From Magnetococcales bacterium (lineage in GTDB: Bacteria; Pseudomonadota; Magnetococcia; Magnetococcales; UBA8363): a stretch of DNA of 64,000 nt. A program made the position numbers and the translations under genes. Below are positions 6,729 through 59,904 of this stretch, piece by piece. The stretch spans positions 3,394-67,393 of the forward strand of contig JADGCQ010000005.1 of assembly GCA_015228925.1 (NCBI GenBank), read 5' to 3'. Each line of letters starts with the position of its first letter. Positions within the stretch are counted from its first letter, which is position 1. The notes below the pieces were generated by a model. That model did no database searches, was not told the origin of the DNA, and saw only the letters and a list, made by a program, of their open reading frames with translations.

Positions 6729-6731
6729 GCT

Positions 6732-9910: not shown

Positions 9911-9916
9911 GTCGCG

Positions 9917-11368: not shown

Positions 11369-11390
11369 TGTCTTCTTCTATCATAAAGGA

Positions 11391-12302
11391 TTATTTGGGA
11401 GGTAACGACAACTCCAGAATATCAACATCAATGGTGTTCTCTTTCTTTGGTTTTTCGTCGTTTTTGGCCAAAGCTTTTTCCTTGGCCCGCCTTTCCTCCT
11501 CCCCTTTTTTCATCAACAGGCTACGTTGTTCAAAAAGTTTGGCGCAGGCTTCATCCAGTTCACCCAATACCGGATCGCCCTGTTGATGATGCATTGTCCC
11601 CGCATCATTGCCCGGACTTTGCCGCCCCACACCACGAACTCTTCCCACCGTAACCTGGCCAGAAGGGGGTGCCGTTGCCACTGTTTCCTCCTTCGGCATA
11701 GATTCTTTCTTGGCATCAACCGCTTTGGACAATTTGCCAACGGTATTGTGAACCGCTTTCTGGGCGGTGTAATAAATACTTTCCCGACTTAAAAAACCCG
11801 AACCCATCAACGATTGACTGGCACGCCACAATACGACACCATCGCGAATACGCACCAATTGCACATTAAAACCGACTGCCGGCTCTTCTCGTAACCCATG
11901 CTGGTAGGAAAACTCCGACACGCTCCCCGTCAAAACCGCATCCACAAACAACCCCGTCCCCACATCCCGCGCGATGGAAACATCGGCCAATCGATCCATA
12001 TCGACTTTGAGTCCAATCAACTGCCGCCGCATTTCACTTTCCTCCAACAAGCAAAACTGCTTGCTGGCCATCAATTCGGTGGCAAACAATTGGGCCACGG
12101 ACAATCCAGCGGTAGGACTGTTGCTCAGATTTTCAAATGGCAAAACCGCGACAGTCAGTGGCGAATTTTTTTCCAGTTCTTCATGGACAAATGAGCGATT
12201 GACCCCCATGGCGCAACCAAACAAACCGAGAGCCACCAAACCTATCGCTATTTTGACACGCGATATTGGCCCTGTACAACCGGAAAGCGAACGTTCATTC
12301 AT
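11391..12302 (-). CDS. pelC: PelC-like outer-membrane lipoprotein with a roughly 130-aa charged C-terminal extension
   Basis: Lipobox LGLFGC. VAVLPFENLSNSPTAGLSVAQLFATEL is PelC-like. The Lys/Glu-rich tail is absent from the roughly 170-aa canonical PelC. Confidence 0.65.
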   Translation of the reverse strand: MNERSLSGCTGPISRVKIAIGLVALGLFGCAMGVNRSFVHEELEKNSPLTVAVLPFENLSNSPTAGLSVAQLFATELMASKQFCLLEESEMRRQLIGLKVDMDRLADVSIARDVGTGLFVDAVLTGSVSEFSYQHGLREEPAVGFNVQLVRIRDGVVLWRASQSLMGSGFLSRESIYYTAQKAVHNTVGKLSKAVDAKKESMPKEETVATAPPSGQVTVGRVRGVGRQSPGNDAGTMHHQQGDPVLGELDEACAKLFEQRSLLMKKGEEERRAKEKALAKNDEKPKKENTIDVDILELSLPPK

Positions 12303-12317
12303 AATTGATCAACCACT

Positions 12318-17530: not shown

Positions 17531-17767
17531 GATTCATGCGACTCCCTAGAATTAGCGATGGACACTATCGTGATTTTCCTCTGAAAATTGCAAAAAATCC
17601 AGGTAGACAAACAATCCAGAAAAAGAAACAGGATTTGCACATATTTTCTTACTGGTATTTTTTTCTACACGGATGTATATTGGAATTTTTTATCAGTGCA
17701 TAAAAATATTCTTGCCTTGATAAGGTGTTTTTATTGTTCCCTTAAATTTTCCTTAGAAGGTATCGTC

Positions 17768-19402
17768 ATGATTCGTTATCGATTCCTACGACAAAGTTTT
17801 TTGGTTTCTCTTCTCATCGCCGTTGCCATACCGCTGTATACCATTTTTTTCCTATTACCATCATTGACTGCGCAATTGGTGAATACCTTTGAAGAAAACG
17901 CCATCAGCGTCGCCCATCACCTCTCCGCCATGTTACGCGAACACCATCTGTTGCAAGATGGCCAGATTGCTATCTCCCAGGATTTTATGGATGAAGTCAA
18001 AAAAATTTCCCGCGACTTCCACGTCTCCAAACACCGTATTTTTTCCCGTACTGGAAAAATCATCGCCGCCTCCGAAGAAAAAGATATTGGCACAGTCAAT
18101 AAAAATGATTATTTCCACCAAAAGGTCGCCGCAGGACAGATCTTTACCAAGGTGATCGAAAAAGACGAAAAAACCATGGATGGCGAAACGATTCAAAAGG
18201 ATGTGGTAGAAACCTATGTCCCCATGATGGATAATGGACAGTTCTTGGGAGCCTTTGAAATTTATTTCGACATTACAAAACAAAAACACAATCTGAACCG
18301 CTTGACATTTCAATCTTCAGCAATACTGATCTCCATTGGTTTTGGGTTTTTTGGACTATTATTGTTTGTCCGGCATAGCGTCGTCCGCCCCATTTCCGCC
18401 GTTACGGATGCCATGGTCAGGATGGCCCAGGGAGATTTGGAACAACGCGCTCCGGTGAACGGCAAAGATGAGATCAGCACAATGGCCAGCATTTTCAACC
18501 ATATGTGTGAACAATTGCAGGAAAGCCACCGGGGATTGAAACGTGAAAAGAACAAGCTGACCACCATCCTTCTGGGGGCCAGGGAAGGGATTGTGGCCAC
18601 CAACGCCGATGGTGAAATTTCTTTGGTCAATCCTGCGGCGCAAAGACTGTTGGGAAAATCGGAGGAAAGCATTATCGCTGATGGATTTTTACAAATGTTC
18701 GATGATCCCGATTTTATGAAGCATTGCCTAGAAGGGGCCGGAACCGGTATGCCCGACACCATCGTGTATAACAACCATGTTTTAAAGATTTACGCCTCCA
18801 CCATTGTCGCCCCGGATGCTGGAACCATCGGATCGGCGGCATTGATTCGGGATATCACCGATGAAAAAAAACTGGAAGAAAAACTCAGAAAACTTTCCCA
18901 CACCGATGGTCTGACCGGACTATTGAACAGAAGGCGGATGGACGAACTTCTCACCGACGAGATCAACCGCGCCATCCGTTATCATTTGGAGTTTGGTGTT
19001 CTGCTCTTCGATGTGGACCATTTTAAACAGTTTAATGATCGCCATGGCCATGCACAGGGTGATCGGATATTGCAGGGGATCGCAGCCGCCATGACGGGTC
19101 ATTTTCGAAATGTTGATTTTTGTTGCCGCTATGGCGGTGAAGAATTTCTTGTCATCATGCCCAGCACCATCCACCCTGGCATCATGGAAGCTGCGGAACG
19201 GTTCCGCATCCGCATTGAGGAGATGACCATCGATGGATTGAAAGTCACCATCAGCATTGGCGTCGCGGTATACCCACAATCGGGACACTTCAAATCATCG
19301 GAAGAGATTCTCAAAGCGGCGGATGCCGCACTGTATGAAGCCAAAAGTGCCGGTAGGAATTGCGTAAGGCTACCCTCCCCCACTGAGTCCCCCATGCGAT
19401 GA
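17768..19402 (+). CDS. Membrane diguanylate cyclase: periplasmic sensor domain, HAMP, PAS, GGDEF
   Basis: The start was moved to ATG 17768 (MIRYRFLRQSF followed by a TM segment). GGEEF active site (RYGGEEFLVIM) with an RNVD I-site. Confidence 0.85.
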   Translation: MIRYRFLRQSFLVSLLIAVAIPLYTIFFLLPSLTAQLVNTFEENAISVAHHLSAMLREHHLLQDGQIAISQDFMDEVKKISRDFHVSKHRIFSRTGKIIAASEEKDIGTVNKNDYFHQKVAAGQIFTKVIEKDEKTMDGETIQKDVVETYVPMMDNGQFLGAFEIYFDITKQKHNLNRLTFQSSAILISIGFGFFGLLLFVRHSVVRPISAVTDAMVRMAQGDLEQRAPVNGKDEISTMASIFNHMCEQLQESHRGLKREKNKLTTILLGAREGIVATNADGEISLVNPAAQRLLGKSEESIIADGFLQMFDDPDFMKHCLEGAGTGMPDTIVYNNHVLKIYASTIVAPDAGTIGSAALIRDITDEKKLEEKLRKLSHTDGLTGLLNRRRMDELLTDEINRAIRYHLEFGVLLFDVDHFKQFNDRHGHAQGDRILQGIAAAMTGHFRNVDFCCRYGGEEFLVIMPSTIHPGIMEAAERFRIRIEEMTIDGLKVTISIGVAVYPQSGHFKSSEEILKAADAALYEAKSAGRNCVRLPSPTESPMR

Positions 19403-20516
19403 CATACATCAAGAAAACAAAAGCGACCGCATGAAGAAATGAAGCCATCCAGGGATCGAAAAAGGGGAGAAAAAGATGGCGGAAATAAAACGTTTTAAAA
19501 GATACCAGTTGATTGTTCACATCCACGACCTTGTAAAGGTGGATGGATCGTCCAATCAGCCCTGAGATAAAATAAAGCAGCAGTGTATCGGTCCCCAAAG
19601 TCACCCATGGCCGCGTCCACCGTTGCCATCCCCGGATATCCACCAGCCCAAAACATCCCGCAAACATCACAAGGGCCAAACCGGCCATGAGAAGTACATA
19701 AGAACTGGTCCAAAGTCCTTTGTTGATCGGCAACCAATGATCCCAAAGGAGACCGGAACCAATTAAAAAAATCCCCGCCGCAAACAACCCAAAAACAATC
19801 GCTTTCGGTGTTCGCTGGATTTTCAAAAAATGACCCGTCAAGACACCAAACAGACAGGTTGCCATCGCAGGTAATGTACTAAATAGACCTTCCGGGTCAA
19901 AACCCGCTGCGGGAGCCGCAGTCCACGTATGCCCTGCCAGCACCATGGCGTCGATAAAGCGGGCCAGATTCCCCTCTGGCGTTAAATCACCCGCACCAAA
20001 ACCGGGTACCGGGACCAACACCAACAGCAGCCAGGAGAGGATCACAATCAGCCAAGTCAGAATCCACTGCGTGCGAACCGATGTGGTAAGAACCAGTAAA
20101 CCCACGACCCCATAGCAAATCGCAATCCTCTGCAAAACGCCGGGAATACGCATCGTCGCCCAAGAAAAATGATGGTCAAACGCAAGTCCGAATGGAAACC
20201 CCGACAAAAACAATCCCAGCCCAAAAATAAGCAGGCTGCGGGCCAGCAAATGGCGGCAGACCTCCCCCACCGTAGCCCCCTGATGACGCCGCCTGGACAA
20301 TGATAGCGTCAAAGACAGCCCGACAATCCACAAAAAAAAGGGGAAAACCATGTCGGCCAACGTCCACCCATGCCAAGCCGCATGTCTCAAGGGGGAATAA
20401 AAATAATTCCAATCGCCCGCATTGTTGACCAGCATCATCCCCGCAAAGGTGATCCCACGCAACACATCCAACGCAAGCAATCGACCGCCAACGGTATGAT
20501 TCGGAAAAATATTCAT
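19311..20516 (-). CDS. Polytopic acyltransferase-family membrane protein (DUF1624/DUF5009, heparan-alpha-glucosaminide N-acetyltransferase-like)
   Basis: RLLALDVLRGITFAGMMLVNNAGDW...AWHGWTLADMVFPFFLWIVG motif and about 10 TM segments. Confidence 0.7.
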   Translation of the reverse strand: MNIFPNHTVGGRLLALDVLRGITFAGMMLVNNAGDWNYFYSPLRHAAWHGWTLADMVFPFFLWIVGLSLTLSLSRRRHQGATVGEVCRHLLARSLLIFGLGLFLSGFPFGLAFDHHFSWATMRIPGVLQRIAICYGVVGLLVLTTSVRTQWILTWLIVILSWLLLVLVPVPGFGAGDLTPEGNLARFIDAMVLAGHTWTAAPAAGFDPEGLFSTLPAMATCLFGVLTGHFLKIQRTPKAIVFGLFAAGIFLIGSGLLWDHWLPINKGLWTSSYVLLMAGLALVMFAGCFGLVDIRGWQRWTRPWVTLGTDTLLLYFISGLIGRSIHLYKVVDVNNQLVSFKTFYFRHLFLPFFDPWMASFLHAVAFVFLMYVIAWGTQWGRVALRNSYRHFWLHTVRHPPL

Positions 20517-20558
20517 CCGGGATTATTTTGTATGACACAGCATGATACGAACGAGCAA

Positions 20559-20744
20559 TCATTTCCCTTCGGGAAACAAATTGCGATTAATACCAAGGAG
20601 GACAGAAGCAATTTGCACAACAGTACCACCGATCAGAGCCATGATCACGTTTTCAGTAATAATACGAGGGGGCGGAGATGCAAACAGAAAAACATTCGCA
20701 ACATCCGTAAGGAAAATGAGGAACACCAACACCAGCACACCCAT
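20559..20744 (-). CDS. Small two-TM hypothetical protein (61 aa)
   Basis: Two hydrophobic helices. Its ATG lies 1 nt after the stop of the preceding small ORF. Confidence 0.35.
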   Translation of the reverse strand: MGVLVLVFLIFLTDVANVFLFASPPPRIITENVIMALIGGTVVQIASVLLGINRNLFPEGK

Positions 20745-20745
20745 G

Positions 20746-20904
20746 TTAATCGTCTTGGTGAGACCTTAGGACATGATCTAACAAATCCCGACGCATTTCG
20801 ATATTCGCTTCAACTTCTCTTGTGCGCAGTTCTGCTAGTTTATTTTCACTCTCTTGAAGATCTAACGAACCTGCGTCATCGTCTTTATTTTCATTTTTTT
20901 CCAC
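20746..20904 (-). CDS. Small acidic coiled-coil ORF (52 aa, GTG start), absent from the supplied ORF track
   Basis: Hand translation gives VEKNENKDDDAGSLDLQESENKLAELRTREVEANIEMRRDLLDHVLRSHQDD*. It is tightly packed against the next ORF. Confidence 0.25.
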   Translation of the reverse strand: MEKNENKDDDAGSLDLQESENKLAELRTREVEANIEMRRDLLDHVLRSHQDD

Positions 20905-20939
20905 AACCCAACGAACTCCGTATCAGAACCGAACCAAGA

Positions 20940-21170
20940 TTACTCCCGAAACATAGTAATCTTCTTCATTTTTTCCCCATTTCCCAAAAACAAGGCCCCA
21001 GAACCATCCACAAATTGCCCGGCGACATCCAAAAGGGCGAGAGCCTTTCTAATGACTTCAACATCCGACTCCACCCCATAAATATTTTTCAACCGCGCAA
21101 AAACCTCCACCGACTGCCCATTCAATTCCAAATTCAACGTCCTGGAACCGCATCTATTGGTCGAAGTCAT
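20940..21170 (-). CDS. Small hypothetical protein (76 aa), possibly ribbon-helix-helix-like
   Basis: gggaga SD-like sequence 7 nt upstream of the ATG. The LNLELNGQSVEVFARLKNIYGVESDVEVIRKALALL pattern resembles a strand-helix-helix fold. Confidence 0.4.
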   Translation of the reverse strand: MTSTNRCGSRTLNLELNGQSVEVFARLKNIYGVESDVEVIRKALALLDVAGQFVDGSGALFLGNGEKMKKITMFRE

Positions 21171-21363
21171 GGATTATCTCCCACAATATCACCCTTCCTC
21201 GCATCCGCCATTGACATATTTTTCATACAAATTCCCACAACTCCAGCCAACTGTGTCGCACCCAACATCCATTGTCAAGTCCGCTCTTCCGAATTTTTCT
21301 ACAGCGAAAAAGAGACGGGGATTTAATATTTGTCATCTAATTATTATAAAATAATTTAACTCA

Positions 21364-23247
21364 TCAGTTTAATATCTTTTGTAACATGTTGGGTTTGTTG
21401 AGTCTTGTCCTCATTTTGGAAATGGGGGTGAACTGCGCTTCCTGATCCAATTCCTTATTCCTGTGCCACCCTAAATAATTTTCAGCATTTTTGGATGCCG
21501 TATAATAAAAATAATCGGGAGACCAAACGATCCATTCTCCACTGTCGGCATTGATAAAAAATGAAAGAACAGGTTTCCCTGCGGTTACAGAAAACCAGTT
21601 GATCGTACCGTTGCTCAATGCCACCAAGATGAATTTTCCATTCTCCGTAATATTGAGTGCCCTAATGGAACTTTCCACGACGGCACGCCAGCGTAACACC
21701 CCCGACCCATCGTACAGGTACAAGGCACTGTTGGTACTGGCCACAAAAAACCGTTCATCATTGGCAATGGCAAAACAGGAAATTTCTTCATTGCCCGGAA
21801 CATCAATATCCCTGCCGTCAAGATTCAGGCGAAGGTAATCATTTTGCATTCTGGCCTTCAAGTTGAGGCGCGAAGCCCGCCTCTTGGGCACCATCAACGA
21901 AGAGGATTGTGACGGATTGATGGAAAACTGCATATGACCCAAAGAAAAGGAACCATTCACGGTATTCTCTGGATTCATTGGAAAAGAGACGGTGCCACCC
22001 GATGGGGAAATCTGCAAAAATCCCAGGCACTTCGGAAACAAAACATTGGGATATTTGCGCACGGTCCCCAAAAACCCCTGCGCATCAACCTGCCCCAAAG
22101 CACTGGAAAGAGAGGTAAACAAAAGCCCCCCTTCCTTGAGAGGAAGAATCGCTTGTACAGGGGCAACGGAAACAGGAATATCGACAAATTCTCCTTTGCC
22201 AGCATTGTCGGTTTGACCTCCCTGGCTCCACCAGCGCAACATCCGCTTAAATTTCGCTGTATGTTTTCCCGCACCATACAGTGCCTTGCCATCCAACGAC
22301 CAAGCCAACGTAACGATCTCCCCGGAAACTCCCGTCATGTCAGGCAGATATAAAATCTCAAGATCTCGAGCCGACAACACCGAAACCATGGGCTTACCCA
22401 AAAAAGAAACGGCGATCTTACTGCTATCGGGAGAAAAAAATGCACCCTGGGGTGTGATGCCTGAGGGTATTTGCTTGATTTGTTCTATCCGAAAAGAAGC
22501 ATCGTAAAGCCGAACTTTCCCATCCTGGCTGGTGGAGACCACCTTTCCAGATGGAGAAAACCGTACCGAATTGGCAGGACCGCCATAACGACTATCCTGT
22601 GCCGCCAGTTGTCCATTGCTGATGCGAAAAACACGCATCCCGCCACGATTGGCCATGACAGCCGCCAAATATTGGCCATCCGGGGAAAAAGCCATGTCGG
22701 TAACCTGCTCAGGAAGCCCGGCAATCTTATAACGTACACGACCGCTCTGGGTATTGAATACGTAGATGCAATAGGACAAATTCCAAGATCGACACGTATC
22801 TCCCGCCGTCGCAATGATCCCTCCCGATGGAGATACCGCCAGGGCGTTCAGCCGACCTTCACCGCCGGAAATCATCGGAACCCGAAGCGTTTTCCATAAT
22901 TGAAAATTGGGAAGTTGCCAAATGCGAACAGTCTTGTCCAAAGAAATGGTCGCAAGGATCCGTTCATCCCGGTCCATGGCCATTTTTTGGATAGGATCCA
23001 GATGCATACCAGGATCCAGTACCAACATCGGTGAATCAAACGCACTCGCAGCCAAAGCAGAATGCAGATATGGCAACAAAAATATGGAAATAATAGCAAA
23101 AGGTAAAACAAAAAAAAACTTGAACCCATGCTGCGGTCTGTACAAAAAAACCATGATCAATCCGCTCCATGGAAAGATTAAAACGGCCACCATCACGAGA
23201 AGATAAAAACCGGATCCATTATAGATCGGAGAAGGGAATATTAACAA
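21364..23247 (-). CDS. Membrane-anchored WD40 / beta-propeller repeat protein
   Basis: Two N-terminal TM helices followed by repeated WD-like units (TISLDKTVRIWQL, STSQDGKVRLYD and others). Confidence 0.75.
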   Translation of the reverse strand: MLIFPSPIYNGSGFYLLVMVAVLIFPWSGLIMVFLYRPQHGFKFFFVLPFAIISIFLLPYLHSALAASAFDSPMLVLDPGMHLDPIQKMAMDRDERILATISLDKTVRIWQLPNFQLWKTLRVPMISGGEGRLNALAVSPSGGIIATAGDTCRSWNLSYCIYVFNTQSGRVRYKIAGLPEQVTDMAFSPDGQYLAAVMANRGGMRVFRISNGQLAAQDSRYGGPANSVRFSPSGKVVSTSQDGKVRLYDASFRIEQIKQIPSGITPQGAFFSPDSSKIAVSFLGKPMVSVLSARDLEILYLPDMTGVSGEIVTLAWSLDGKALYGAGKHTAKFKRMLRWWSQGGQTDNAGKGEFVDIPVSVAPVQAILPLKEGGLLFTSLSSALGQVDAQGFLGTVRKYPNVLFPKCLGFLQISPSGGTVSFPMNPENTVNGSFSLGHMQFSINPSQSSSLMVPKRRASRLNLKARMQNDYLRLNLDGRDIDVPGNEEISCFAIANDERFFVASTNSALYLYDGSGVLRWRAVVESSIRALNITENGKFILVALSNGTINWFSVTAGKPVLSFFINADSGEWIVWSPDYFYYTASKNAENYLGWHRNKELDQEAQFTPISKMRTRLNKPNMLQKILN

Positions 23248-23273
23248 CCATTCATCTTAGCAAGCAAGGGTCG

Positions 23274-23924
23274 CTAAACGGCAAGTTTATCGAAAGCGTG
23301 GGAGCCTTCGCCGCGCATGGCCAAAAATATCTCGCGACTGATCCACGCATCCGTGGCGGCATAGGTGATCTGAAATGGTTTGAGAACCGGGCTATCCCAA
23401 TTGGAACACTGCGCCCGTTTGGAGATTCTAAAATTAAAAAAGCGGGCCGCCATGGTACGCAACCCATGGCTTTCGATCCCCATGGCACGGGCCATGTCAC
23501 CCAAATCATGGCATTGGACAGGGTTGAAGGAAAAAATCGCCCTGAGCTGATCCATATCCTGGGCAATACCAACCCCCACCTTGGCCACACGGTGATCTTC
23601 CATCAATTCCTGCAAAGGAGCAAAGAGCGTCAGCCGATTCAGTTGAAACAGATAAACAAACTCTTCTCCCGCCAGTTGCAGCAAAGAAGGAAGATGAGAA
23701 ATCCCCTTACGAAACACAGGCTTGGTTTCCGTATCAAAACCAAGCAACGTTTCATTTCGCAGCTTATCCACCGCCAGCAAAACCTGATCGTCATCCCTGA
23801 CCAGATGAATGGGACCCTCCCATCTCCGAATGGGGAGACTGTTGATCTCATCCTTGGTGAGTTTTTTACAATGATCAGCAACCAAACGGGGTGTGGCAGA
23901 GGTAGTCTTTTCCTGCATGTTCAT
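23274..23924 (-). CDS. 3'-5' exonuclease domain protein (DEDDy, RNase D / WRN-exo-like)
   Basis: ExoI GFDTETKP, ExoII-like region, and ExoIII YAATDAWISREIF. The start was chosen at MNMQEK. Confidence 0.8.
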   Translation of the reverse strand: MNMQEKTTSATPRLVADHCKKLTKDEINSLPIRRWEGPIHLVRDDDQVLLAVDKLRNETLLGFDTETKPVFRKGISHLPSLLQLAGEEFVYLFQLNRLTLFAPLQELMEDHRVAKVGVGIAQDMDQLRAIFSFNPVQCHDLGDMARAMGIESHGLRTMAARFFNFRISKRAQCSNWDSPVLKPFQITYAATDAWISREIFLAMRGEGSHAFDKLAV

Positions 23925-24066
23925 TCGATGGCTTTCAGGTACACGACCGCAATGGCAAGCTTGATGTCCGGTCAAGTGAGTATCGCACATTCAAGGGACT
24001 TTCTACAACATCCCGAAGCAACAAACAATCACTGCCTGCGCAAACGCGCCGCTTTTTGCCAAACGC

Positions 24067-25806
24067 TCACAATCGTTTGCCTTCCCGGAGCATCTTGGTC
24101 AACTCTTCGGCAGGCACAGGCGCACTGAACAAAAAACCCTGCATCTGGTTGCAATTGAGCGCACGCAGAATGGCCAGTTGTTCCTCGGTTTCCAACCCTT
24201 CGACAATCACCTTCTGGTCCAGGCTGTGGGCCATGGCGATAATGGCATTGACAATGGCCTTGTCGCCACTGTTCTCGGTGATGGAACTCACGAAAGAGCG
24301 ATCAATTTTCAATGTTTTAAATGGAAAATGCCGCAGTTGGCTCAAAGAGGAATAGCCGGTACCAAAATCATCAATAGAGAGATGAACGCCCAACTCGCTA
24401 ATTTCTCGAAGCATGATTACGGCTTTTTCCACATCTTCCATGATCGCGCTTTCGGTAATTTCCAGGTCAAGGAGGGAAGGTTCAACCCCTGTTTGCATCA
24501 AAGCATCCTTGATGATAAACACCAGATTTTGACGCTGAAACTGTAGGGCGGAAAGATTGACTCCCACACGAATGGGAGGCAGATCCATAGCTTTCCACTG
24601 GGCAATCTGTTTGCATGCGGTACGAATCACCCACTCCCCAATGGGGAGGATCAAACCGGTCTCTTCGGCGACCGGAATAAATTCGGCGGGAGAAACCATC
24701 CCCCGTTCCGGGTGAATCCAGCGAATCAAAGCTTCGGCACCAAATACTTGGCCCGTTTTCAAGTCTACCTGGGGTTGATAGTACAACCGCAGTTCATCCC
24801 CCTCCAGGGCATGTCGTAAACTCGATTCCAGAGCAAAACGCTGGCGTGCCGCTTCAGCCATGTCTGCGGAGAAGAATTGATAGTTATTACGACCACGACG
24901 ACGGGCATGATCCAATGCGGTTTCAGCATTCTTCAACAAGCTTGCGGCATCCGTGGCATCCTGGGGAAAAAGGGTAATGCCAATGGCCACGGAAATTTCC
25001 ACATCCTGAGAACCCAACCGAGTCGGTTCAGCCAGGGCTTCGTAGATTTTTCGGGCAACAAAACCGGAATTACGTACCGCACCGGTCCCTTCATCGATAT
25101 CGGTCAACAACAAGCCAAATTCATCGGCACCGATGCGGGCCACACTGTCACTGGTACGCAGGCATCGCGTCAGACGAACGGCCACCTCCTTGAGCATTTC
25201 ATCACCCAACTGGGTTCCCAGAGAATCGTTGATCAAGCGAAACCGATCAAGATCCAATATCAACACCCCAAGCGAATAATTATGACGTTTCGCTCCGGCA
25301 ATCGCCTGTTCCAATCGGTCGAAAAACAAAGCGCGGGTCGCCAGTTGCGTCAAAGGATCCTTAGCATTATCACGGATACTTTCATCATTTTTATCCAATA
25401 ATTGGGTATTTGAAAGTTGGCAGAGGAAAAAACGAACTTTGCCCTGCGATGGCAAAATAGCACTAATTTTCAGGAATTTTTCACATTTTTCCTGTTTGCC
25501 CACGCATTTCAGATGGACACTGCCAGACCAATAACCGTCCTGCCACAACGTTTCCACGATTTCATCAAGCAATATCCTATCCGCCGATTCGGGGAACAAA
25601 CGGGCAATATTTTTTCCTTCCAAAGCTTCATGGGGTCTATGCGTCATCCGGGAGAAGGCGCGATTGATTCGGCGCACGTTGCCACGCCAATCCACCAGGG
25701 CCACCCCCTCACTGCTATTTTCCAGGAGTACCTTGAGCAGTTTTTCCTCGAAGGCAGACCCGCCCAAAAACTGCGATAAATGATCCGTTCGGTTTTGAGA
25801 TTCCAT
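24067..25806 (-). CDS. PAS, degenerate GGDEF (GADEF), EAL phosphodiesterase
   Basis: RIGADEFGLLL in place of GGDEF. Intact EAL motifs EALIRW and DDFGTGYSSL. The start was chosen at MESQNR. Confidence 0.85.
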   Translation of the reverse strand: MESQNRTDHLSQFLGGSAFEEKLLKVLLENSSEGVALVDWRGNVRRINRAFSRMTHRPHEALEGKNIARLFPESADRILLDEIVETLWQDGYWSGSVHLKCVGKQEKCEKFLKISAILPSQGKVRFFLCQLSNTQLLDKNDESIRDNAKDPLTQLATRALFFDRLEQAIAGAKRHNYSLGVLILDLDRFRLINDSLGTQLGDEMLKEVAVRLTRCLRTSDSVARIGADEFGLLLTDIDEGTGAVRNSGFVARKIYEALAEPTRLGSQDVEISVAIGITLFPQDATDAASLLKNAETALDHARRRGRNNYQFFSADMAEAARQRFALESSLRHALEGDELRLYYQPQVDLKTGQVFGAEALIRWIHPERGMVSPAEFIPVAEETGLILPIGEWVIRTACKQIAQWKAMDLPPIRVGVNLSALQFQRQNLVFIIKDALMQTGVEPSLLDLEITESAIMEDVEKAVIMLREISELGVHLSIDDFGTGYSSLSQLRHFPFKTLKIDRSFVSSITENSGDKAIVNAIIAMAHSLDQKVIVEGLETEEQLAILRALNCNQMQGFLFSAPVPAEELTKMLREGKRL

Positions 25807-26031
25807 AGATATTCCCAGATTAACCCAACACGCTGCGGCAAGGGGAACCGTGAACAAACACAAGCGGCATCCCTCGCATCCATCATCTTAGGCCAAGCAA
25901 GGAAACATGTCTATCGAAGCAGTAAAAACCCAACGCCCCTGGCGATTATTTTTACAAACAGCCAGATCGATCACCTGGAAAAATAACACCCTGAGCCAGG
26001 AAAAGGAAACATAGTCCACAACGCCTGTGGG

Positions 26032-28647
26032 CTAAGATACCCCCTTGGCATGCAAAAATGATCCATAACTCCGATCTTCCTTGAGGAGATGTTGGACCAG
26101 CCACGTTTGAAGAAATGAGAGAAAATCAAGGTAATTGACATATTTACCTTCAAAGACCGTTTCCTGAAGTGCCTGCACCTGTCGCGCCATGGTTCGATGA
26201 ACATCCCGGTGATGATCCACATTGGGAAAGCCATGCTGAACCAACAATTGTTCCTCAGCATCAAAATGATACTGAGTGTACACCACCAGACTTTCCATGG
26301 CCGCTATCAGCTCATCCCGCCGTTGACCGAAACGGATGATATTCAAAATATTATTCGCGATTCCAAATAATTCCTTGTGGTGCGCATCCATGCTGGCGAT
26401 TCCGGTACCAAACTCGTCACGCCAATAAAAAACCTTGCTGGAATCGCTACTGTAGATGGATTGCATCGCCCTGGTCTTATACATTTCAAACAACTTCCAC
26501 CGTACAATCGGGATGTCCGCGAGCAGGTCGCCACGAATTTGTAAAATTTCCGTCTCCTCCTCGGCCATGACATGGTACAGGCACGGAACACCAAAAATAG
26601 CCCCCTCCTCACCAAAAAAATGACCCACTTCCAAGACATCCAAACTATCGGTACCAATTAATCGCCGCATTTTTCCCCGACGAATCACATGGAGAAACCC
26701 CGAATCCTGACAAGGAACCGTACTGCCAGAGGCAATCGTTTTATAAACCAGATTGTCGATAATCCCCGCCATCACCGGATGGGACAACCCCTCACAAAGA
26801 AGATCAATAGATTCAAGAAATGCACGAATGGTCGCCGTGCGCTCAATCTTACCCATCAGATCATTTTTTTGAATGATCTGCCGGTAAAGACCTGCGGAAA
26901 TCTTGAGTGCGCTGACATAACTGGCTGCCCTGAAAGTCCACGGAGAAGGGGTCTGTTTGAGTGCAGAATCCTCCCCCAACAAGGTACCAGCCATCAGGCG
27001 ACTCAACCGATTTTCACCGGAAAATATTTTTTCCACCAACCCCGTTAAAATCAACAGGACATCCTCACAACAATCCCCCTCCTTTAAAATGATCGCTCCC
27101 GGATTGATGGCAACCACCTCGTTGTTCAGCAGCATACGCAGATGATGGAACGGAACCCTGGAAAAATGGCTTTGTAAAAATTGAAAAGCCAGACGTCGGG
27201 CAAAATCGTTCTGTCCCGAAATCAAAACATCACTGATACCAAAAGGTGCCGATGACCCAATCGCTTTTTCACTGGGGGTCAGATTGACCGAAGTATGTGC
27301 CAAAACAATGCGTTCGGACTTGTCGTTACGAAAATCTTCAGCCGCCCCGTGGATCATTCCACCGCCAACGTCAAGCTTCTTCAAATTCAATGGGACAAGA
27401 TACTCTTTCTTGACCTTCTCAAAAAATGCCCGTTTGACTCCAGGGACATCATCATCCTCGGTGACCATCCCTTCCAGAACATTCAGAGAAACAATGTCGG
27501 CAAAATGGCCGTATGTTTTATATCCCGAAGACCATAGAGTTCTGAACAAAAAATTTGTTGTTTCCAAAGGGTGCGGGGAAAACACCGGCATGACTTCCAA
27601 CCCCTGGATATCGGTCCACTGGTCCATGGGCAGGTCATGACAATCGAAGAAATCCTGAAATTGATTTTCCTCCATGGAGAGCAGTGCCGCCAATTTCTTT
27701 TCGACCGTCAGTCGGACCAAGGCTGCGGCATAGTATTTGATCTTGTGCCCGGAACGCATCAGGGAGGTGATGCCGGCGAAATGATCATCATGGGCATGGG
27801 TATGGAAAATCCCTTCGATTTCGTTGATGCCGACGCCAAGTGCCGTCAGATTAAAAAAAAGATTCGGTCCCGCATCGATCAAATAGATTTTACCTTGAAA
27901 CAACACAATACTCGACATGGAGGGGCGATTGACATCCCACCCATCACCGTCTCCTGAGTGGATCACGGAAAAATAATCCCTGGGAATGCTCTGGAATCCC
28001 AGGGGATAAGGGGGGTCATAATGGTCTTCCCCCTGAAGGTTCAGATCGACGGTTACGGTGTCCCCGTGATAAGAGATTTCAAACTGATTGACGGCGATGC
28101 GTTCGATGGTGACACCGTTACGAATTTCCCTTTTTTCCATCCCCAGAACACAACTGTCCAACAAAAGACTGGACGGTTTGATCTGCCCAAAAGCAAACCG
28201 CTTTTTCAAGCGCATCATTTGCTTGGCCGTTTCTTCGTCAACACCACCCTGTCGGATTTCCTCAAGGGAGACCAATCCATAATTACCCCGGAAAATGTAC
28301 TGCATCTGTGCCTGGACTTGCTCACCCAATCCGATGAGCAAGGGCTTCTGCCCAGTATTATTGGGGTGTTTGGGGATGATCAACCCCTGCTTGTAGAGCA
28401 TTTGCAGGACGGGAAACTCCGCCAAGTTGGAAAATTCTCCGTTTTGAATCATGACATCGGAGAGGAGAATGGCATTGGGTCCGGTTTCGCACAGAACCCC
28501 TTCAACCTCACGTTGAATGATCAATCCGCGTTTCATCAGATGCTTCACGCAATCCGCAGGACATCCGCAGATGATCTGCAATTTAGCATCAGGGATTTCA
28601 ACCCAAAAAACGCCTTTAATAACTGGAACCTTAATGATCTTGTCCAT
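26032..28647 (-). CDS. Multidomain protein: unknown N-terminal domain, MBL-fold hydrolase, 2 cNMP-binding domains, hemerythrin
   Basis: HxHxDH motif in IFHTHAHDDHFAG. Two CAP_ED-like segments (ILKEGDCCEDVLLILTG...LLGEDSAL and GHFFGEEGAIFG). C-terminal hemerythrin ligand pattern MDAHHKELF / YHFDAEEQLL / HHRDVHRTM / WLVQHLLKEDRSY. Confidence 0.8.
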   Translation of the reverse strand: MDKIIKVPVIKGVFWVEIPDAKLQIICGCPADCVKHLMKRGLIIQREVEGVLCETGPNAILLSDVMIQNGEFSNLAEFPVLQMLYKQGLIIPKHPNNTGQKPLLIGLGEQVQAQMQYIFRGNYGLVSLEEIRQGGVDEETAKQMMRLKKRFAFGQIKPSSLLLDSCVLGMEKREIRNGVTIERIAVNQFEISYHGDTVTVDLNLQGEDHYDPPYPLGFQSIPRDYFSVIHSGDGDGWDVNRPSMSSIVLFQGKIYLIDAGPNLFFNLTALGVGINEIEGIFHTHAHDDHFAGITSLMRSGHKIKYYAAALVRLTVEKKLAALLSMEENQFQDFFDCHDLPMDQWTDIQGLEVMPVFSPHPLETTNFLFRTLWSSGYKTYGHFADIVSLNVLEGMVTEDDDVPGVKRAFFEKVKKEYLVPLNLKKLDVGGGMIHGAAEDFRNDKSERIVLAHTSVNLTPSEKAIGSSAPFGISDVLISGQNDFARRLAFQFLQSHFSRVPFHHLRMLLNNEVVAINPGAIILKEGDCCEDVLLILTGLVEKIFSGENRLSRLMAGTLLGEDSALKQTPSPWTFRAASYVSALKISAGLYRQIIQKNDLMGKIERTATIRAFLESIDLLCEGLSHPVMAGIIDNLVYKTIASGSTVPCQDSGFLHVIRRGKMRRLIGTDSLDVLEVGHFFGEEGAIFGVPCLYHVMAEEETEILQIRGDLLADIPIVRWKLFEMYKTRAMQSIYSSDSSKVFYWRDEFGTGIASMDAHHKELFGIANNILNIIRFGQRRDELIAAMESLVVYTQYHFDAEEQLLVQHGFPNVDHHRDVHRTMARQVQALQETVFEGKYVNYLDFLSFLQTWLVQHLLKEDRSYGSFLHAKGVS

Positions 28648-28988
28648 CCTCAGTTCCTTATTGAGATACGAACCAGCCGCCTGTGATTGATTATTAATTT
28701 ACCATAAAATGCCAGATTCTAGCAGATGATCACGCACCAACGCACGATATTTCATCAAGTTCGTCGCCATGCCAAAAAAAACAGGCCCATGGCTCATTCA
28801 TGACACATCAACTCGATGAATAACACAATAGGCCAAAATGGAGCATCGTGAAAAATTCAGGCTTCTTCCTTTTGGAAATTTTGGTAATGAACATTGGAAA
28901 ATCGTCGTTTAAAATCACCGACTGTCAAGAAAAAAAATGGTGGCAAATTTCTGCGATGAATTCACCTGTTTTTTTCTTGGAAAAAAGG

Positions 28989-29017
28989 TTGCACAATCAA
29001 AATGATTATGTATAAAT
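28989..29017 (+). promoter_or_regulatory. Sigma-70-like promoter (TTGCAC, 17 nt spacer, ATAAAT)
   Basis: Hexamers and spacing read directly in an AT-rich intergenic region. Confidence 0.35.
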
Positions 29018-29023
29018 ATTTGA

Positions 29024-29270
29024 TATTTTTTAATTTTAACCCATGCACTTTTTTTTATCACACACCCTTGTATCCGGTCGATGATTGGCGTAAAAAAGCC
29101 CAATCTGAAGAGGTCGTCCCCAAGCTACATGATCGAAGTCCCAAACGTTCCACCTGGGCCTTGTCCAGGAGAATCGCGCAACTGGGAAGTGTAGTTTCAG
29201 GGCAGATGGCCTTGCTTCACTTAAGGTTCGGGTCAGCCGAGACATGGTGTCTGTGAGGGCTGTTTTTTTT
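29024..29270 (+). ncRNA. Candidate leader or small RNA of about 245 nt, bounded by the promoter above and an intrinsic terminator
   Basis: There is no credible ORF between the predicted start and the terminator, which ends 22 nt before the DUF488 start codon. Confidence 0.3.
29234..29270 (+). terminator. Rho-independent terminator (cagccgagaca-tgg-tgtctgtgagggctg followed by T8)
   Basis: GC-rich stem-loop plus an 8-T run, read directly. Confidence 0.65.
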
Positions 29271-29292
29271 CGTTGTGAAGGGGTCCGAATTT

Positions 29293-29922: not shown

Positions 29923-30669
29923 ATGAGACCGATCATCCCCCTTGAAGAACGGATTATTTTTGCCCTGGATGTAGACAGCCCCGACGATGCTAGGCGATGG
30001 ATGGATCGCCTGGGAGGGCATGTTGGTTTCTACAAGATCGGTTTGCAACTGTTTTTGGCTGGCGGCCTTGGATTGATCGAAGAATTGGCCCTCCGTGGCC
30101 ATAAGGTGATGGTAGACCTTAAGCTGTTTGATATCGACAAAACGGTGGAGTTGGCGATTCGTGAATTGGCCAAACATCCCATCGCTTATACGACGGTGCA
30201 TGGTCCAGAATCCATCATACGGGCCGCCGTCGCAGCACGGGGAAACATGCGCATCCTCGCAGTCACGGTACTCACATCCTTCGACCGCCATGATCTGGAA
30301 GATCTTGGACTGGTAGGGGTCGATGTGGAACAGGTGGTATTGAGCCGGGCAAAACGGGCCATGGCGGCAGGTTGTGACGGCGTCGTGGCTTCTGGATTGG
30401 AAGTCGCCAAAATGCGACAGCAGGTTGGCGATGGATTTTTGATCGTCACACCGGGCATTCGTCCTGGTTCCTTTGCTGATCGCGATGGCGGCGATGAACA
30501 AAAACGGGCAACCACCGCACGGGCTGCCATCCTGGCAGGGGCCGATCACGTCGTGGTAGGACGACCCATCAAAAACGCCGCTGACCCCCTGGCAGTGGTA
30601 AAAACGCTGCAACAAGAGATTCTAGCAGGACTGCAAGGGGGCGGTTCTCCCAACCTTACCCTCCCTTGA
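29923..30669 (+). CDS. pyrF: Orotidine 5'-phosphate decarboxylase
   Basis: IFALDV...FYKIGLQLF...DLKLFDIDKTV...TPGIR motifs. Confidence 0.9.
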   Translation: MRPIIPLEERIIFALDVDSPDDARRWMDRLGGHVGFYKIGLQLFLAGGLGLIEELALRGHKVMVDLKLFDIDKTVELAIRELAKHPIAYTTVHGPESIIRAAVAARGNMRILAVTVLTSFDRHDLEDLGLVGVDVEQVVLSRAKRAMAAGCDGVVASGLEVAKMRQQVGDGFLIVTPGIRPGSFADRDGGDEQKRATTARAAILAGADHVVVGRPIKNAADPLAVVKTLQQEILAGLQGGGSPNLTLP

Positions 30670-33600
30670 ACCTTTCACCCAAATAAATTTCAGTATGCAG
30701 CGCAGACTCCTGGAGTTCATCCATGAGGGGAGCGATAGTATCGGTATTCCCCGTTTTTGCCATCTTTTCCAAACGCTGACACAGATCAGCCAGCCGCAAC
30801 GCCCCAAGAGTGCGCGCCCCACCTTTCAGCCGATGGGCATTGTTGGCCAAAGTCACAGGGTCTTCGGAAGATGCAAGAATGTCGCGAATACGTTCTGGCA
30901 AAACGTGCAAAAACGTCTTGATAATCAGTCCAATCTCATCCCCAACCTCACTTTGAAGACGCGATAATTCCTCAGGATCAACAATGGGCAACAATGCAGC
31001 ATCCTTTTCCATGGCCACCGCAACAGGCTGAGAAGATCCCTCTGGAATCACAACCGGGGGACTCTGCTGTGACCGAGCCTGGCTCACTTTGGTCCCCCAA
31101 AGGTTCAGTATCCGAATCAGATCCCGTGATCGGAAAGGCTTGGCGATGTAATCATCCAATCCCGCAGCCAAACATTTTTCCCGATCACCCGACATGGCAT
31201 CGGCAGTGATGGCAATAATGGGAATATGGGGATGATTGGGTTCCAAACCCTCCTGTTGACGAATGTGAGCAGTAGCGGTAAACCCATCCATTTCCGGCAT
31301 ATGCATATCCATGAGAATCAGATCATAAGGAAAAGCCGCCGCCATCTCCACCGCCTTACGACCGTGTTCCGCCCAATGGGCATGGCATCCCAATCGCCCC
31401 AACATTCCCATGATCACGTCACGATTGACCTCAAAATCCTCCGCCACGAGGATGCGCAGGCCAGAAAAATTATGATTTTGCAAATGGGTTTCAGAAATAT
31501 GCCTTTTTTCCTGATCTTTACTCGCGGCCCCTGCGTGTACGGTGTGATCCAATTCCAAAGTCACTTCAAACCAAAACGTACTCCCCTGACCCGGAACACT
31601 GTCCAACCCAACCTTACCCCCCATCAATTCCACCAGTTTACGCACAATGGACAGCCCCAAACCACTGCCACCATAGCGTCGCGTCGTCGTACCATCAGCC
31701 TGGACAAACGGTTGGAATAACCGTTTTTGCGCCTCGCCATCGATGCCGATGCCGGTATCGGTCACCTCAAAACGGAAAAGGTTTCCCACCGGTGATTCGG
31801 ACAAACAGATGATATGCAACAATACCCCACCGTCATGGGTGAATTTGACCGCGTTACCAGCAAGGTTAATCATGATCTGGCGTAACCGGACCGGATCACC
31901 CAATACCGATGTATTCATCGCCTCTGGGGTCAGCTTGATGGATAACGGCAATGATTTACTGTGGGCCAACGGTGAAAAAACATCGGCAACATCAGCCAAT
32001 AATTCCTTCAAATCAAAAGATATATGTTCCAGTACAATCTGGCTGGTCTCAATTTTTGAAAAATCCAAAATATCGTTGAGCAAATTGAGCAACGATTCCC
32101 CAGAACGATAAACTGTTTGTGCATAGTGATATTGTTGTTGATTCAGAGGACCATCCAACAATAACTCCACCATTCCCAGAATACCATTCATCGGAGTACG
32201 AATTTCATGGCTCATGGTCGCCAGAAATTCACTCTTGGCCCGACTGGCGGCATCCGCTTTTTGCCTAGCTTCCCGTAACGCCGCATCGTAAACCTTTTTT
32301 TCGGTAATATCCTCTTTGATTGCCAAATAATGCTGAATCTTACCCTTATCGTTGAATATGGGTGCTATCAACGTCGATTCCCAGAAGGAATCACCGCTTT
32401 TCTTCCGATTCAGCAACTCCCCCCGCCAGGTGTTACCCGATGCAATGGTTTGCCACATGTCGGAATACACCAACTCTGGCGTTAATTCAGTTTTCAACAT
32501 TCTTGGATTATTGCCAATCACTTCGTGTTGCGCATAGCCAGTCACACGGCAAAATTGCGGATTGACATACTCGATCACCCCTCTAGGATCGGTAATCACT
32601 GTCGTGACGGGACTTTGCTCCACCGCCAGCCAAAAACGGTTCCGTTCGTTTTCAATCTGTTTTTTATCGGTAATATCCTGCTGAATGGCGATAAAATACC
32701 GAATTTTACCCGACTCGTCGCACACCGGCGTGATCACCGATTCTTGAATATACAGTGCGCCATCTTTTTTCTTGTTGACGACTTCATGATGCCAGACTTC
32801 TCCAGCAAGGATCGTATCCCACATCGATTTATAGAATGCCGAATCGTGTTCCCCCGATTTGAGGATGCTGGTTTTTTGGCCAATCACCTCCTCGGCGGGA
32901 AACCCGGTCAATTTCGTAAAGGCAGGATTAATCCACTGGATAACCGATTGCACATCGGTAATGACAATGGGGTTGGCTGCCGCTTCCAAGGCCGCCGCTT
33001 GGAGTCGGAGCTTTCCCTCATCGGCTTTTTTCTGGGAGATATCCCGCAAGAAAGCGGTGAAGAACACATCTTCTGCGATGGAAACAACCGTAATGGCCAA
33101 TTCAATGTCCAAGCGGCGACCATCCTTGTGCATGGCGGGCAATTCGACACGACGGCTGAGAAAATGGCTCTGTCCCGATGAGAAATAGCGTCTGATTGCC
33201 GCGTCGTGTTTATCGCGCAGCTCATGCGGGATGATGGAGTCGGAGAATCTGGTTCCCATCATTTCCTGGCGGGAAAACCCAAAAGTGGTCTCCGCCGCCC
33301 GGTTATACTCCAGGACCATGCCGTCTTGATCGATGCTGATGATGGCATCCATGGCGGTATCGAGGATGGCACTGTACCTGGCCTCACTCTTTCGGAGACT
33401 GCTGACGGAACAGGCAATCGTCTGATCAACAGCCATCAAACGACGATTGAATACGATGATCATGAAAGCGGTAACACTCAGGATAGCCAACGTGATCAAC
33501 AATAAATTTTTCCCCTGGACGGAATCGAATTGCGTATCATCCGCAATAATACCAATCCACCCCAAGGCAACACCGGAATGATCCTGAAGATTGATTTTTT

Positions 33601-34417
33601 CGAAATGTTCATGCTCTTCCAGCCAATAGAGCAACGACTCATTCGCCTGGGGAGAAAACGTACTCTCGCCCCCCAAAAAATCATCATCAAGCCAAGCTGG
33701 AATGGATAAATGCGACATCGGCATCATGACGACATCGGCAAACCGGTTCCATGGCACATCCAACGATTTTATCTTGGCCAATCGTTCCCATTGTTCCTTG
33801 ATGATCCATTTTTTCTCGATAAAGACAAGAAATCTGGCCTGGAACTCCTGTTCAAGTGATTGAAGCAGCGAATGGATTGCCAGATCCACTGCGACATACC
33901 CCATGAGTTTGCCCATGGGGTCCCGCCATGGCACGACAACACACAACAGCAAATCCCCCGATGACGTCACTCTCAACCCCTGGGAGCGGACACCCGTTTT
34001 CTCACTGTTTAAAAGAATCTCATGCGCCAGCAAATCGTCAAACGCTTCCGAACGGTGGACCCGTAAAAGGACATGTCGATCCGGGTTCAGAAAAGATAAT
34101 CCGACAATTCCCTGAAATTTCTCAAATTGTCGGTAGAAAGGGAGAACCTGTTGCAACAGTTGCCCACGATCTCTTGCGACAAAAGCCTGGGATAGATCCT
34201 CTTGCATTTGAAGGATTGCGACCAGCCCCTCCAATTGGTGCCCCGCCTCCTGCTGCATCCCCTGCAACCGCAATGATGAAATCGATTGGACCTCCTGAAG
34301 AAAAACATTTTCCAAAGTTCGGTGCATCCATTGGACAGCAACACCGACAATGACCACCAACAAAATAATGGCAGCAACGAACGTCATGAGAATGGGTTTT
34401 CGAATGGATGCGATCAT
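30656..34417 (-). CDS. Hybrid sensor histidine kinase: periplasmic domain, multiple PAS, HisKA, HATPase_c, REC, HPt
   Basis: [33 protein letters not shown] segment [10 protein letters not shown]...[14 protein letters not shown]. HPt segment [15 protein letters not shown]. Start tentatively at MIASIRKP (34417); the ORF is open up to 34537. Confidence 0.85.
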
Positions 34418-34541
34418 ACGCACAGGGTAGCAGTCCTCCACAATAATAGAAAGAACTCTCTCCTCCTTGCGGGTGGAGTGACTCATAGGGCATAATACCG
34501 ATGGGGAGGGGAATGTTCTTATAGAGAAAGGAAACACCCCC

Positions 34542-35504
34542 TTGAAATATATTCATAAATGGGTCGTTTTGTGCGTGGGCTTGGTCGTGCTGACCTGTAC
34601 GGGAATGGCTTTCCTGGTCACGATTTATACCAGTAAGACGGTGCTGTCCGAGGTCAAAGAGCGTTTTCGTGATCGCGCTACCAATAGAATGCTGGCTGTG
34701 GACAGCTTTCTACACTATAACCTTACCAATGTTCAGGTCATCGCCGGTGATCCGTTATTGTGTACCCCAGAACCATCGACGCAACAAATAGCCTCCCGCC
34801 TGATCACCTACCGCAATCTGTTCAAAGTTTATCTGAGTCTGAGCTATTTTAACCCAGATGGCATCGGAATCGCCGATACGTCGGGCCTGGGCATTGGGCA
34901 ACCCGTGGATCCTGGATCCCCCCCCGGAAAACACTGGTCCCAAATCCTGGAGAGAACCTTTACCCACGGCGTTGGTCATTCCTCCCTTTTAAATGCCGAC
35001 ATCATCACCATCGCCCAACCCGTGCAATGCGGTGATGAACCGCATATACGCGGCGTGGTCGTCGCCAGAGTCAACGTATGGCGGCTACACTCTCTGTTTC
35101 CCATGGCACCGCCCGGACAGGAAGAAAAACCCGATCCATCCGTCCAAATTGACCTGATCGATGGAGAAGGGATCTTGCTCTATTCCAACCATGACCGGGC
35201 GGGTATCATGCAACCCTTTGCTTCACGCCAAGCCTATCATCCAGAAAACAAATACCTTGATCGCGCCTTGCCCTGGCTGGAAAAAAATGCCGTCCGTTCC
35301 GGCGACCGTTATCTCGTATTCCTCGCACAAAGCACAGGAACGATCGATTTCAAGGGGAGCAACTGGCTCCTACAGCTTTCCATCCCCAGGGATACCGCTT
35401 TGGAGCCGGTCTATGAACTGCGCCGTCGTCTCATCGTGATCTCCCTGATGCTCACAGTCCTGGCCGCACTCATCATCATGTTTTTCACCCGTCGATGGTC
35501 CTGA
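34542..35504 (+). CDS. Membrane protein made only of TM, periplasmic Cache-like sensor domain and TM, with no output domain
   Basis: N-terminal and C-terminal hydrophobic helices flank about 270 aa. The protein ends 6 aa after the second TM. TTG start per the ORF track. Confidence 0.55.
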   Translation: MKYIHKWVVLCVGLVVLTCTGMAFLVTIYTSKTVLSEVKERFRDRATNRMLAVDSFLHYNLTNVQVIAGDPLLCTPEPSTQQIASRLITYRNLFKVYLSLSYFNPDGIGIADTSGLGIGQPVDPGSPPGKHWSQILERTFTHGVGHSSLLNADIITIAQPVQCGDEPHIRGVVVARVNVWRLHSLFPMAPPGQEEKPDPSVQIDLIDGEGILLYSNHDRAGIMQPFASRQAYHPENKYLDRALPWLEKNAVRSGDRYLVFLAQSTGTIDFKGSNWLLQLSIPRDTALEPVYELRRRLIVISLMLTVLAALIIMFFTRRWS

Positions 35505-53845: not shown

Positions 53846-53953
53846 CGGAGATAACGCAATCGGTGTTCCCCAAATATCGTGTCACTCCCCAACAAACCCA
53901 ATGCCTCCGCAAGGGAGGCACTGGGGAACAGATGGGTCAAACAAAACAAGGTG

Positions 53954-54781: not shown

Positions 54782-54798
54782 GATCCTAACACCTCTCC

Positions 54799-59885: not shown

Positions 59886-59904
59886 TATCCGAGACCGCAT
59901 TCCT

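Follow-up and report, generated by a model that had tools for sequence, protein, structure and literature searches.

In a 64,000-nucleotide stretch of a Magnetococcales contig (JADGCQ010000005.1, positions 3,394 to 67,393; hereafter the window), one gene encodes an 871-residue protein that joins a family-specific N-terminal domain (N-domain), a catalytic domain of the metallo-beta-lactamase (MBL) fold, two cyclic-nucleotide-binding (CNB) domains and a C-terminal hemerythrin. The gene is no one-off fusion but belongs to a bacterial protein family that is large and strongly conserved, and that has so far escaped experimental study. On balance, and with slightly better than even confidence, we take the protein to be a phosphodiesterase (PDE) of cyclic nucleoside monophosphates (cNMPs) that is gated both by cNMP and by oxygen or redox state. 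The turnover of cyclic AMP (cAMP) and cyclic GMP (cGMP) in non-model bacteria is poorly mapped, and the MBL-type "atypical class II" PDEs have been recognised only recently.

The domain reading of a first-pass annotation, made from the sequence alone, is correct. The 871-codon open reading frame (ORF) is present on the minus strand with an ATG start, which is supported by homologs that align from residue 1. Both MBL profiles pass their Pfam cut-offs (Lactamase_B, 36.6 bits against 22.7, residues 245-314; Lactamase_B_2, PF12706, 33.4 bits against 27), and the metal motif HTHAHDDHFAG lies at residues 282-292. The two CAP_ED-type domains and the hemerythrin, whose failure at the profile level would have counted against the reading, are above cut-off: cNMP_binding (PF00027) scores 60.4 bits against 27.5 in two stretches, the best at residues 514-595, and Hemerythrin scores 51.4 bits against 25.3 at residues 748-861. 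The full-length AlphaFold2 (AF2) model is confident (pLDDT 87.1, pTM 0.90). When this model was searched against the PDB with Foldseek, paired CNB domains from PKG and PKA-R filled the list, and zero MBL matches appeared; comparison of the model with viral structures was uninformative.

The catalytic domain belongs to the MBL superfamily, as indicated by a profile score above the gathering threshold together with the metal motifs. Over about 250 family sequences, D258, H284, H286, D288, H289, H359, H381, D384, H433 and H451 are 98-100% conserved; the lead residue of the motif is T in 93% and S in 6% of the sequences, and its H, H, D and H are 99-100% conserved. Because the metal ligands are near-invariant, an active enzyme is expected. 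The motif conforms to [T/S]HxHxDH within a PF12706-type domain, the sequence signature by which Mycobacterium tuberculosis Rv1339, Bacillus subtilis YhfI and Corynebacterium glutamicum CpdA define the atypical class-II PDEs, a group described as near RNase Z (PMC9293780). Apyc1 is like them in both the signature and the PF12706 match; it is related to YhfI, and both are di-zinc enzymes of the MBL fold that form homodimers and cleave cyclic mononucleotides (PMC9117128). The best matches of a core profile to PDB sequences were Apyc1 7u2s (E 5.5e-11 over 135 residues) and 7t28 (E 1.9e-9), followed by an MBL arylsulfatase (8gyg, E 2.4e-9) and RNase Z/ELAC1 (E ~1e-7); RNase J and ELAC2 were also among the matches. 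Sub-threshold matches to the Pfam Apyc1 family were found in 13 of 14 core proteins. As judged from these comparisons, the catalytic domain is placed in the RNase Z/Apyc1/atypical-PDE branch, with the binuclear-metal cNMP hydrolases Apyc1, YhfI, Rv1339 and CpdA as its best solved sequence relatives. The concern raised at the outset, that the domain might cluster with RNase J/Z, is neither borne out nor cleanly removed by this placement, the cNMP PDEs being the closest solved relatives. Members of the Apyc1/YhfI group are single-domain homodimers of ~245 residues without sensor domains, whereas the present protein is multi-domain and carries sensors.

The top 120 matches of a protein search were full-length homologs of ~870 residues with more than 50% identity, and one protein, from a Magnetococcales metagenome-assembled genome (MAG), was identical (100%) and annotated as "bacteriohemerythrin". 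When each species was represented by a single genome, relatives turned up in at least 551 of these genomes. Of the relatives, the 80 best all span residues 1-870 at 47-76% identity and come from many phyla; ~50% identity kept over 870 residues across phyla points to strong constraint. Hosts among these 80 include Magnetococcales, cultured strains of Magnetospirillum/Paramagnetospirillum, Telmatospirillum, Gallionellaceae, Rhodocyclaceae, Desulfobacterota, Geobacter, Campylobacterota, anammox Planctomycetota, Nitrospinota and Poribacteria, with Anaerolineae and Actinomycetota MAGs among the others. Their lifestyle is mostly microaerophilic or anaerobic and gradient-dwelling. Divergent representatives were also checked for a eukaryotic look, and the AT-rich ones appear bacterial.

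A search with residues 1-500 against 1.84 billion representative proteins yielded 202 representatives at E<1e-30, each of which aligns with the N-terminal region and the MBL domain together, as one unit of ~480 residues. This core occurs alone (~480 residues), with two CNB domains (~730 residues) and with CNB domains plus hemerythrin (~870 residues). Other members have an N-terminal REC, GAF, CHASE2 or SBP_bac_3 sensor joined to the core and no hemerythrin, and in some of 840-890 residues the C-terminus is a helical extension from which the hemerythrin ligands are gone. A histidine kinase gene precedes that of a REC-fused form, with 50 bp between them. Going by these fusion forms, the core looks like a signalling output enzyme whose inputs are swappable, hemerythrin being one of them. 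Two of the stand-alone 480-residue cores, P0150 and P0180, are 43-48% identical to the query core; at their loci (L086 5386-7452 and L089 3083-5085) each is directly preceded, on its own strand, by a TerB-domain gene and followed by an EPSP synthase gene, and TerB and the stand-alone core may form a conserved pair. Another representative, P0203 (1167 residues), has two family-type CNB domains, then a third CNB domain with a fully canonical cassette (FGEVGILEHKPRSATVAA), and after it a C-terminal extension of ~300 residues that has no Pfam match.

No other part of the protein is as conserved as the N-domain, whose mean majority fraction is 0.81-0.88 over residues 61-120 against 0.41-0.65 in the hemerythrin; over 270 sequences, ~50 of its positions reach a conservation of at least 90%. 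Polar residues conserved in it are K35, H36, N58, D64, Q68, N74, E77, Q87, H94, R120 and R183. The first-pass annotation left about 230 N-terminal residues unassigned. The first ~225 residues have indeed no Pfam, NCBIfam or PDB sequence match, and an N-domain-only profile gave 0 matches to PDB sequences at E<=10; yet this segment is not a loose one, as it forms one ~480-residue core with the MBL domain. No internal duplication was detected when the N-domain profile was aligned by hhalign with the family's own MBL profile (probability 0.1%). In a separate AF2 model of the N-domain (pLDDT 76.9), the 16 best Foldseek matches in the PDB were all of the MBL fold, although weak (Apyc1 7u2r the best, E 5e-4, with TM 0.37-0.44; TM 0.32-0.44 overall), and metal motifs are absent from the domain. 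An Apyc1 or YhfI monomer is roughly half as large as the core, and those enzymes are dimers; from this and the weak structural matches we propose that the N-domain may be a degenerate (pseudo-) MBL half that forms an intramolecular pseudo-dimer with the active half. It may also contribute to the substrate pocket.

The putative regulatory half of the protein begins with the two CNB domains, and in the AF2 model residues ~500-735 match the CNB pairs of PKG and PKA-R (Foldseek, E ~1e-13). The canonical phosphate-binding cassette reads G-E-x-A-L ... R-[ST]-A. CNB-A has G558-E559 ... R573-A-A-S576, a lengthened cassette in which the Arg stands five residues further on and which resembles the R-A-A-T of PKA. 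CNB-B keeps the FGEE (77-87%) and has no conserved Arg at the canonical position, which is occupied here by C689. Neither cassette is canonical; cNMP binding is plausible, and CNB-A is the likelier putative ligand site.

The C-terminal hemerythrin, described at first as having the full His/Glu/Asp pattern, carries all seven di-iron ligands (H757, H794/E798, H813/H817 and H853/D858) with canonical 4/4/5 spacing. They are invariant in the A1 set and 91-100% conserved in a wider set. The domain scores 105.8 bits in the NCBIfam bacteriohemerythrin model NF033749 (cut-off 84), and its best PDB match is the hemerythrin of DcrH (2avk, E 5e-14). Hemerythrin domains regulate a diguanylate cyclase, Vibrio cholerae Bhr-DGC, and an HD-GYP phosphodiesterase, Ferrovum Bhr-HD-GYP, via the di-iron redox state, and both of these are more active when reduced (PMC8846402). 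In Bhr-DGC, Bhr-HD-GYP and the chemoreceptor DcrH, as in the present protein, a di-iron hemerythrin is joined to a signalling output. Those systems, however, act on cyclic di-GMP (c-di-GMP) or chemotaxis and have the hemerythrin as an N-terminal or sole sensor, whereas the protein described here has a predicted MBL phosphodiesterase as output and an extra CNB input.

Taken together, we favour a cytoplasmic multi-input enzyme whose substrate, activation by cNMP and direction of O2 or redox response we infer rather than observe. A binuclear-metal MBL phosphodiesterase would convert 3',5'-cyclic mononucleotides to 5'-NMP, the substrate being cAMP and/or cGMP, possibly with a broader specificity. 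The catalytic unit would be the ~480-residue core, in which the N-domain would be packed against the active MBL domain; being probably a degenerate MBL half, it would reproduce in one chain the homodimeric arrangement of Apyc1, YhfI and RNase Z. The tandem CNB domains would bind cyclic nucleotide and activate hydrolysis by analogy with Dictyostelium GbpA and GbpB, and the C-terminal di-iron hemerythrin would report O2 or redox state (diferrous versus diferric), as its counterparts do in Bhr-DGC and Bhr-HD-GYP. In GbpA and GbpB two cyclic-nucleotide-binding domains come after the catalytic MBL domain, and hydrolysis is activated when cNMP binds to them (PMC11988041). These "class IIb" enzymes (GbpA, PdeD/DdPDE5; GbpB, PdeE/DdPDE6) have the same order of parts in a single cytosolic polypeptide (PMC11988041; PMC4758236), and the Magnetococcales protein displays this architecture at residues 226-480 (MBL), ~497-615 (CNB-A) and ~616-735 (CNB-B).

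The interpretation in the first-pass annotation, an O2-, NO- or iron-responsive and substrate-gated cNMP phosphodiesterase, was reasonable and partly overstated on novelty. An Apyc1-nearest core, the PDE signature, the swapping of sensors on the core, the tandem CNB domains, an intact hemerythrin and the largely gradient-dwelling hosts agree with it, and the non-canonical CNB cassettes do not. Its claim that the architecture was uncharacterised does not hold for the combination of an MBL domain with two CNB domains, already known in GbpA/GbpB, but does hold for the hemerythrin input and the N-domain. These two features are new; MBL-type cNMP phosphodiesterases, CNB gating and hemerythrin sensors are each of known kinds.

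Several observations weigh against a cNMP-gated cNMP phosphodiesterase. The query scores 23.0 bits in the Pfam Apyc1 family (PF23023) against a cut-off of 50, and other members score 18-27 bits, so the bacterial family is separate from Apyc1. The typical class II PDE family (PF02112) gave zero matches even at E<=10, and the motif is HAHDDH, not HxHLDH; the proposed link to class II cNMP PDEs thus stands for the conserved atypical signature and fails for the typical class. Among NCBIfam models the nearest neighbour is RNase Z. In the CNB domains, a gapless phmmer alignment to PfPKG puts S568 (CNB-A) and C689 (CNB-B) at the canonical Arg position. R573 counts as the phosphate-binding Arg only if an insertion of five residues is accepted, and it is 73% conserved, with Ser instead in some Magnetococcales homologs. 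The canonical third CNB domain added in P0203 hints that the built-in pair are possibly not ordinary cNMP sensors. GbpA and GbpB are eukaryotic and have no hemerythrin, the bacterial cassettes depart from the canonical form, and the likeness drawn here is one of domain order. The proposed mechanism leaves the strong conservation of the N-domain unexplained. In three full-length loci no cyclase, CNB effector or defence system was seen as a conserved neighbour. Finally, our literature searches found no paper on a bacterial MBL-CNB-hemerythrin family and no enzymatic data for any member; one Magnetospirillum transcriptome paper that they returned concerns other genes.

The alternative that survives best, though we consider it unlikely, keeps the architecture and the regulation and changes the substrate to 2',3'-cNMPs, cyclic pyrimidine nucleotides or cyclic di- or oligonucleotides, with a CNB ligand that is not the substrate or not a cNMP. 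Nucleotide specificity among the relatives of Apyc1 is broad and varies, and Rv1339 cleaves 2',3'-cNMPs too, although it does not cleave c-di-AMP or c-di-GMP (PMC9293780). The non-canonical state of both CNB cassettes and the extra CNB domain of P0203 fit another substrate, and a substrate pocket peculiar to the family could be supplied by the highly conserved N-domain. The many c-di-GMP genes around this gene point the same way, but they weigh little because homologous loci do not share this neighbourhood. Against this alternative, 3',5'-cNMPs are the substrates of the nearest characterised relatives and also of the only enzymes with an MBL domain and two CNB domains that have been characterised. 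Rather improbable, in our view, is a more particular form in which the protein would be an O2- or redox-gated hydrolase of a signalling nucleotide other than cAMP or cGMP, and the N-domain, beside two non-canonical CNB-like domains, an undescribed pseudo-MBL module for ligand or substrate. The nucleotide could then be a pyrimidine one, a 2',3'-cyclic one or an unrecognised messenger of microaerophiles, and the resemblance to Dictyostelium GbpA and GbpB would be purely architectural.

Less probable again is that cNMP and O2 control an RNA-processing nuclease like RNase Z or RNase J, or some other hydrolase of the MBL fold, for instance an arylsulfatase. Of the NCBIfam models, the RNase Z equivalogs come nearest, and RNase Z, ELAC1/2, RNase J and arylsulfatase 8gyg all appeared in the PDB profile search; Apyc1, however, ranks above RNase Z in that search, and the scores in the RNase Z model (TIGR02651) are 34.5-53.5 bits against 292.95, covering only model positions 15-74 or 15-150, that is, mostly the first ~60-130 residues around HxHxDH. 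Long-form RNase Z consists of a degenerate N-terminal MBL half and an active C-terminal MBL half, which the core recalls, and ELAC2/Trz1 is in this respect a possible analogy. Unlike in ELAC2/Trz1, the N-domain has no detectable sequence relation to any MBL, its structural similarity is limited to the low TM values given above, and there is no sign of tRNA binding. The fusion of the core to CNB, REC, GAF and CHASE2 sensors also fits second-messenger enzymes and not tRNA-processing enzymes.

It is very improbable that O2 binding, iron storage or detoxification by the hemerythrin is the main role of the protein and that its other domains are accessory or inactive, as its name in NCBI and IMG and its intact hemerythrin domain might imply, since the hemerythrin is the least conserved part and is lost or ligand-less in many members while the core, with its near-invariant catalytic residues, stays intact. 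We thus rejected "simply a hemerythrin" as a description of the protein, in which the hemerythrin is a dispensable module. NCBI calls full-length family members "bacteriohemerythrin", and JGI/IMG calls P0134, P0272, P0278 and P0279 (733-736 residues) "hemerythrin" even though they are without the hemerythrin domain; because IMG gives the name to such members, it reflects annotation transfer.

Table 1. Features of the gene and of its surroundings in the window.
Feature	Position	Strand	Basis or remark
Whole gene, 871 codons + stop codon (26032-26034)	26032-28647	-	ORF list and translation
N-domain, aa 1-225, family-specific	27973-28647	-	Co-aligns with MBL domain; conservation; AF2
Catalytic MBL-fold domain, aa 226-480	27208-27972	-	Pfam above cut-off; profile vs PDB; residue conservation
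Metal-binding signature T283-H-A-H-D-D-H289, [T/S]HxHxDH	27781-27801	-	Translation = THAHDDH
CNB-A, aa ~497-615	26803-27159	-	Pfam cNMP_binding; AF2 secondary structure; Foldseek; phosphate-binding cassette analysis
CNB-B, aa ~616-735	26443-26802	-	Second Pfam stretch; phmmer vs PfPKG; family frequencies
Bacteriohemerythrin domain, aa 740-871	26035-26430	-	NCBIfam NF033749; PDB match; ligand conservation; translation
Three weak terminator-like hairpins right after stop codon	25962-26030	-	Consensus scan only
Two overlapping sigma-70-like promoter matches, weak	29005-29061	-	Consensus only, 9/12, not above shuffles
PAS-GGDEF-EAL gene, 168 bp downstream of target gene, same strand	24067-25863	-	Adjacency not conserved in homologous loci
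627-aa WD40 beta-propeller protein, two genes downstream of target	21364-23247	-	Many WD40-family matches
PelG	5346-6728	-	
PelF-like DUF3492+GT1 gene	6732-8519	-	
534-aa tetratricopeptide repeat (TPR) protein, C-terminal cNMP_binding (PelE-like)	8306-9910	-	cNMP_binding 75.8 bits
PelD-like GAF_3 protein	9917-11368	-	
Two pel-operon ORFs without Pfam matches	11391-12302, 12318-13958	-	
AAA_21/AAA_15 ATPase, AbiEii/OLD-like family	60448-61548	-	Adjoins 180-aa ORF 59905-60447 without Pfam match

The flanks of the gene are listed in Table 1. Judging by the weak hairpins behind the stop codon, the gene appears to be transcribed separately from the PAS-GGDEF-EAL gene downstream. Upstream, the intergenic region (28648-29274, 628 bp) is of unusual length and rich in A and T, several poly-A/T tracts included, and a search of it against Rfam returned no element at E<=0.1.

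The window is rich in c-di-GMP and two-component genes (2378-4924, 14112-16697, 17588-19402, 30656-34537 and 47955-53023), and it holds a pel exopolysaccharide operon on the minus strand (5346-13958). The fusion of a PelE-like TPR protein with a CAP_ED domain, reported in the first-pass annotation, is real, and a CNB domain on a Pel component suggests a cNMP input into a pathway that is normally controlled by c-di-GMP. The "orphan cyclase-homology gene" reported with it was not found by Pfam among the larger window ORFs tested, and the supposed concentration of cNMP-related domains in the window is supported in part, by the PelE-like fusion. ORFs of 180-400 residues without a Pfam match at E<=0.01 lie at 19311-21326, 23169-24128, 34542-35504, 53879-54871, 57290-57856 and 58941-60447; some of them overlap on opposite strands, and gene calls there are uncertain. 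The AbiEii/OLD-like ATPase and the 180-residue ORF beside it may be a small defence or toxin-antitoxin module.

Hundreds of genomes label this protein "bacteriohemerythrin", which hides a probable enzyme core. The wide distribution and strong conservation of the family, this misleading annotation and an undescribed, highly conserved N-domain add to its interest. If our preferred reading of a cNMP- and O2- or redox-gated phosphodiesterase is true, MBL phosphodiesterases activated by cNMP, until now known only in amoebae, would have a widespread counterpart in bacteria, and the family would be the first link of a hemerythrin O2 or redox sensor to cyclic-mononucleotide, rather than c-di-GMP, signalling. 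Orthologues in cultured, genetically tractable Magnetospirillum species and in Magnetococcus marinus MC-1 make the hypothesis directly testable. The enzyme would then be a candidate for coupling oxygen to cNMP-dependent behaviour in magnetotactic, iron-oxidising, anammox and sulfate-reducing organisms that live in gradients.

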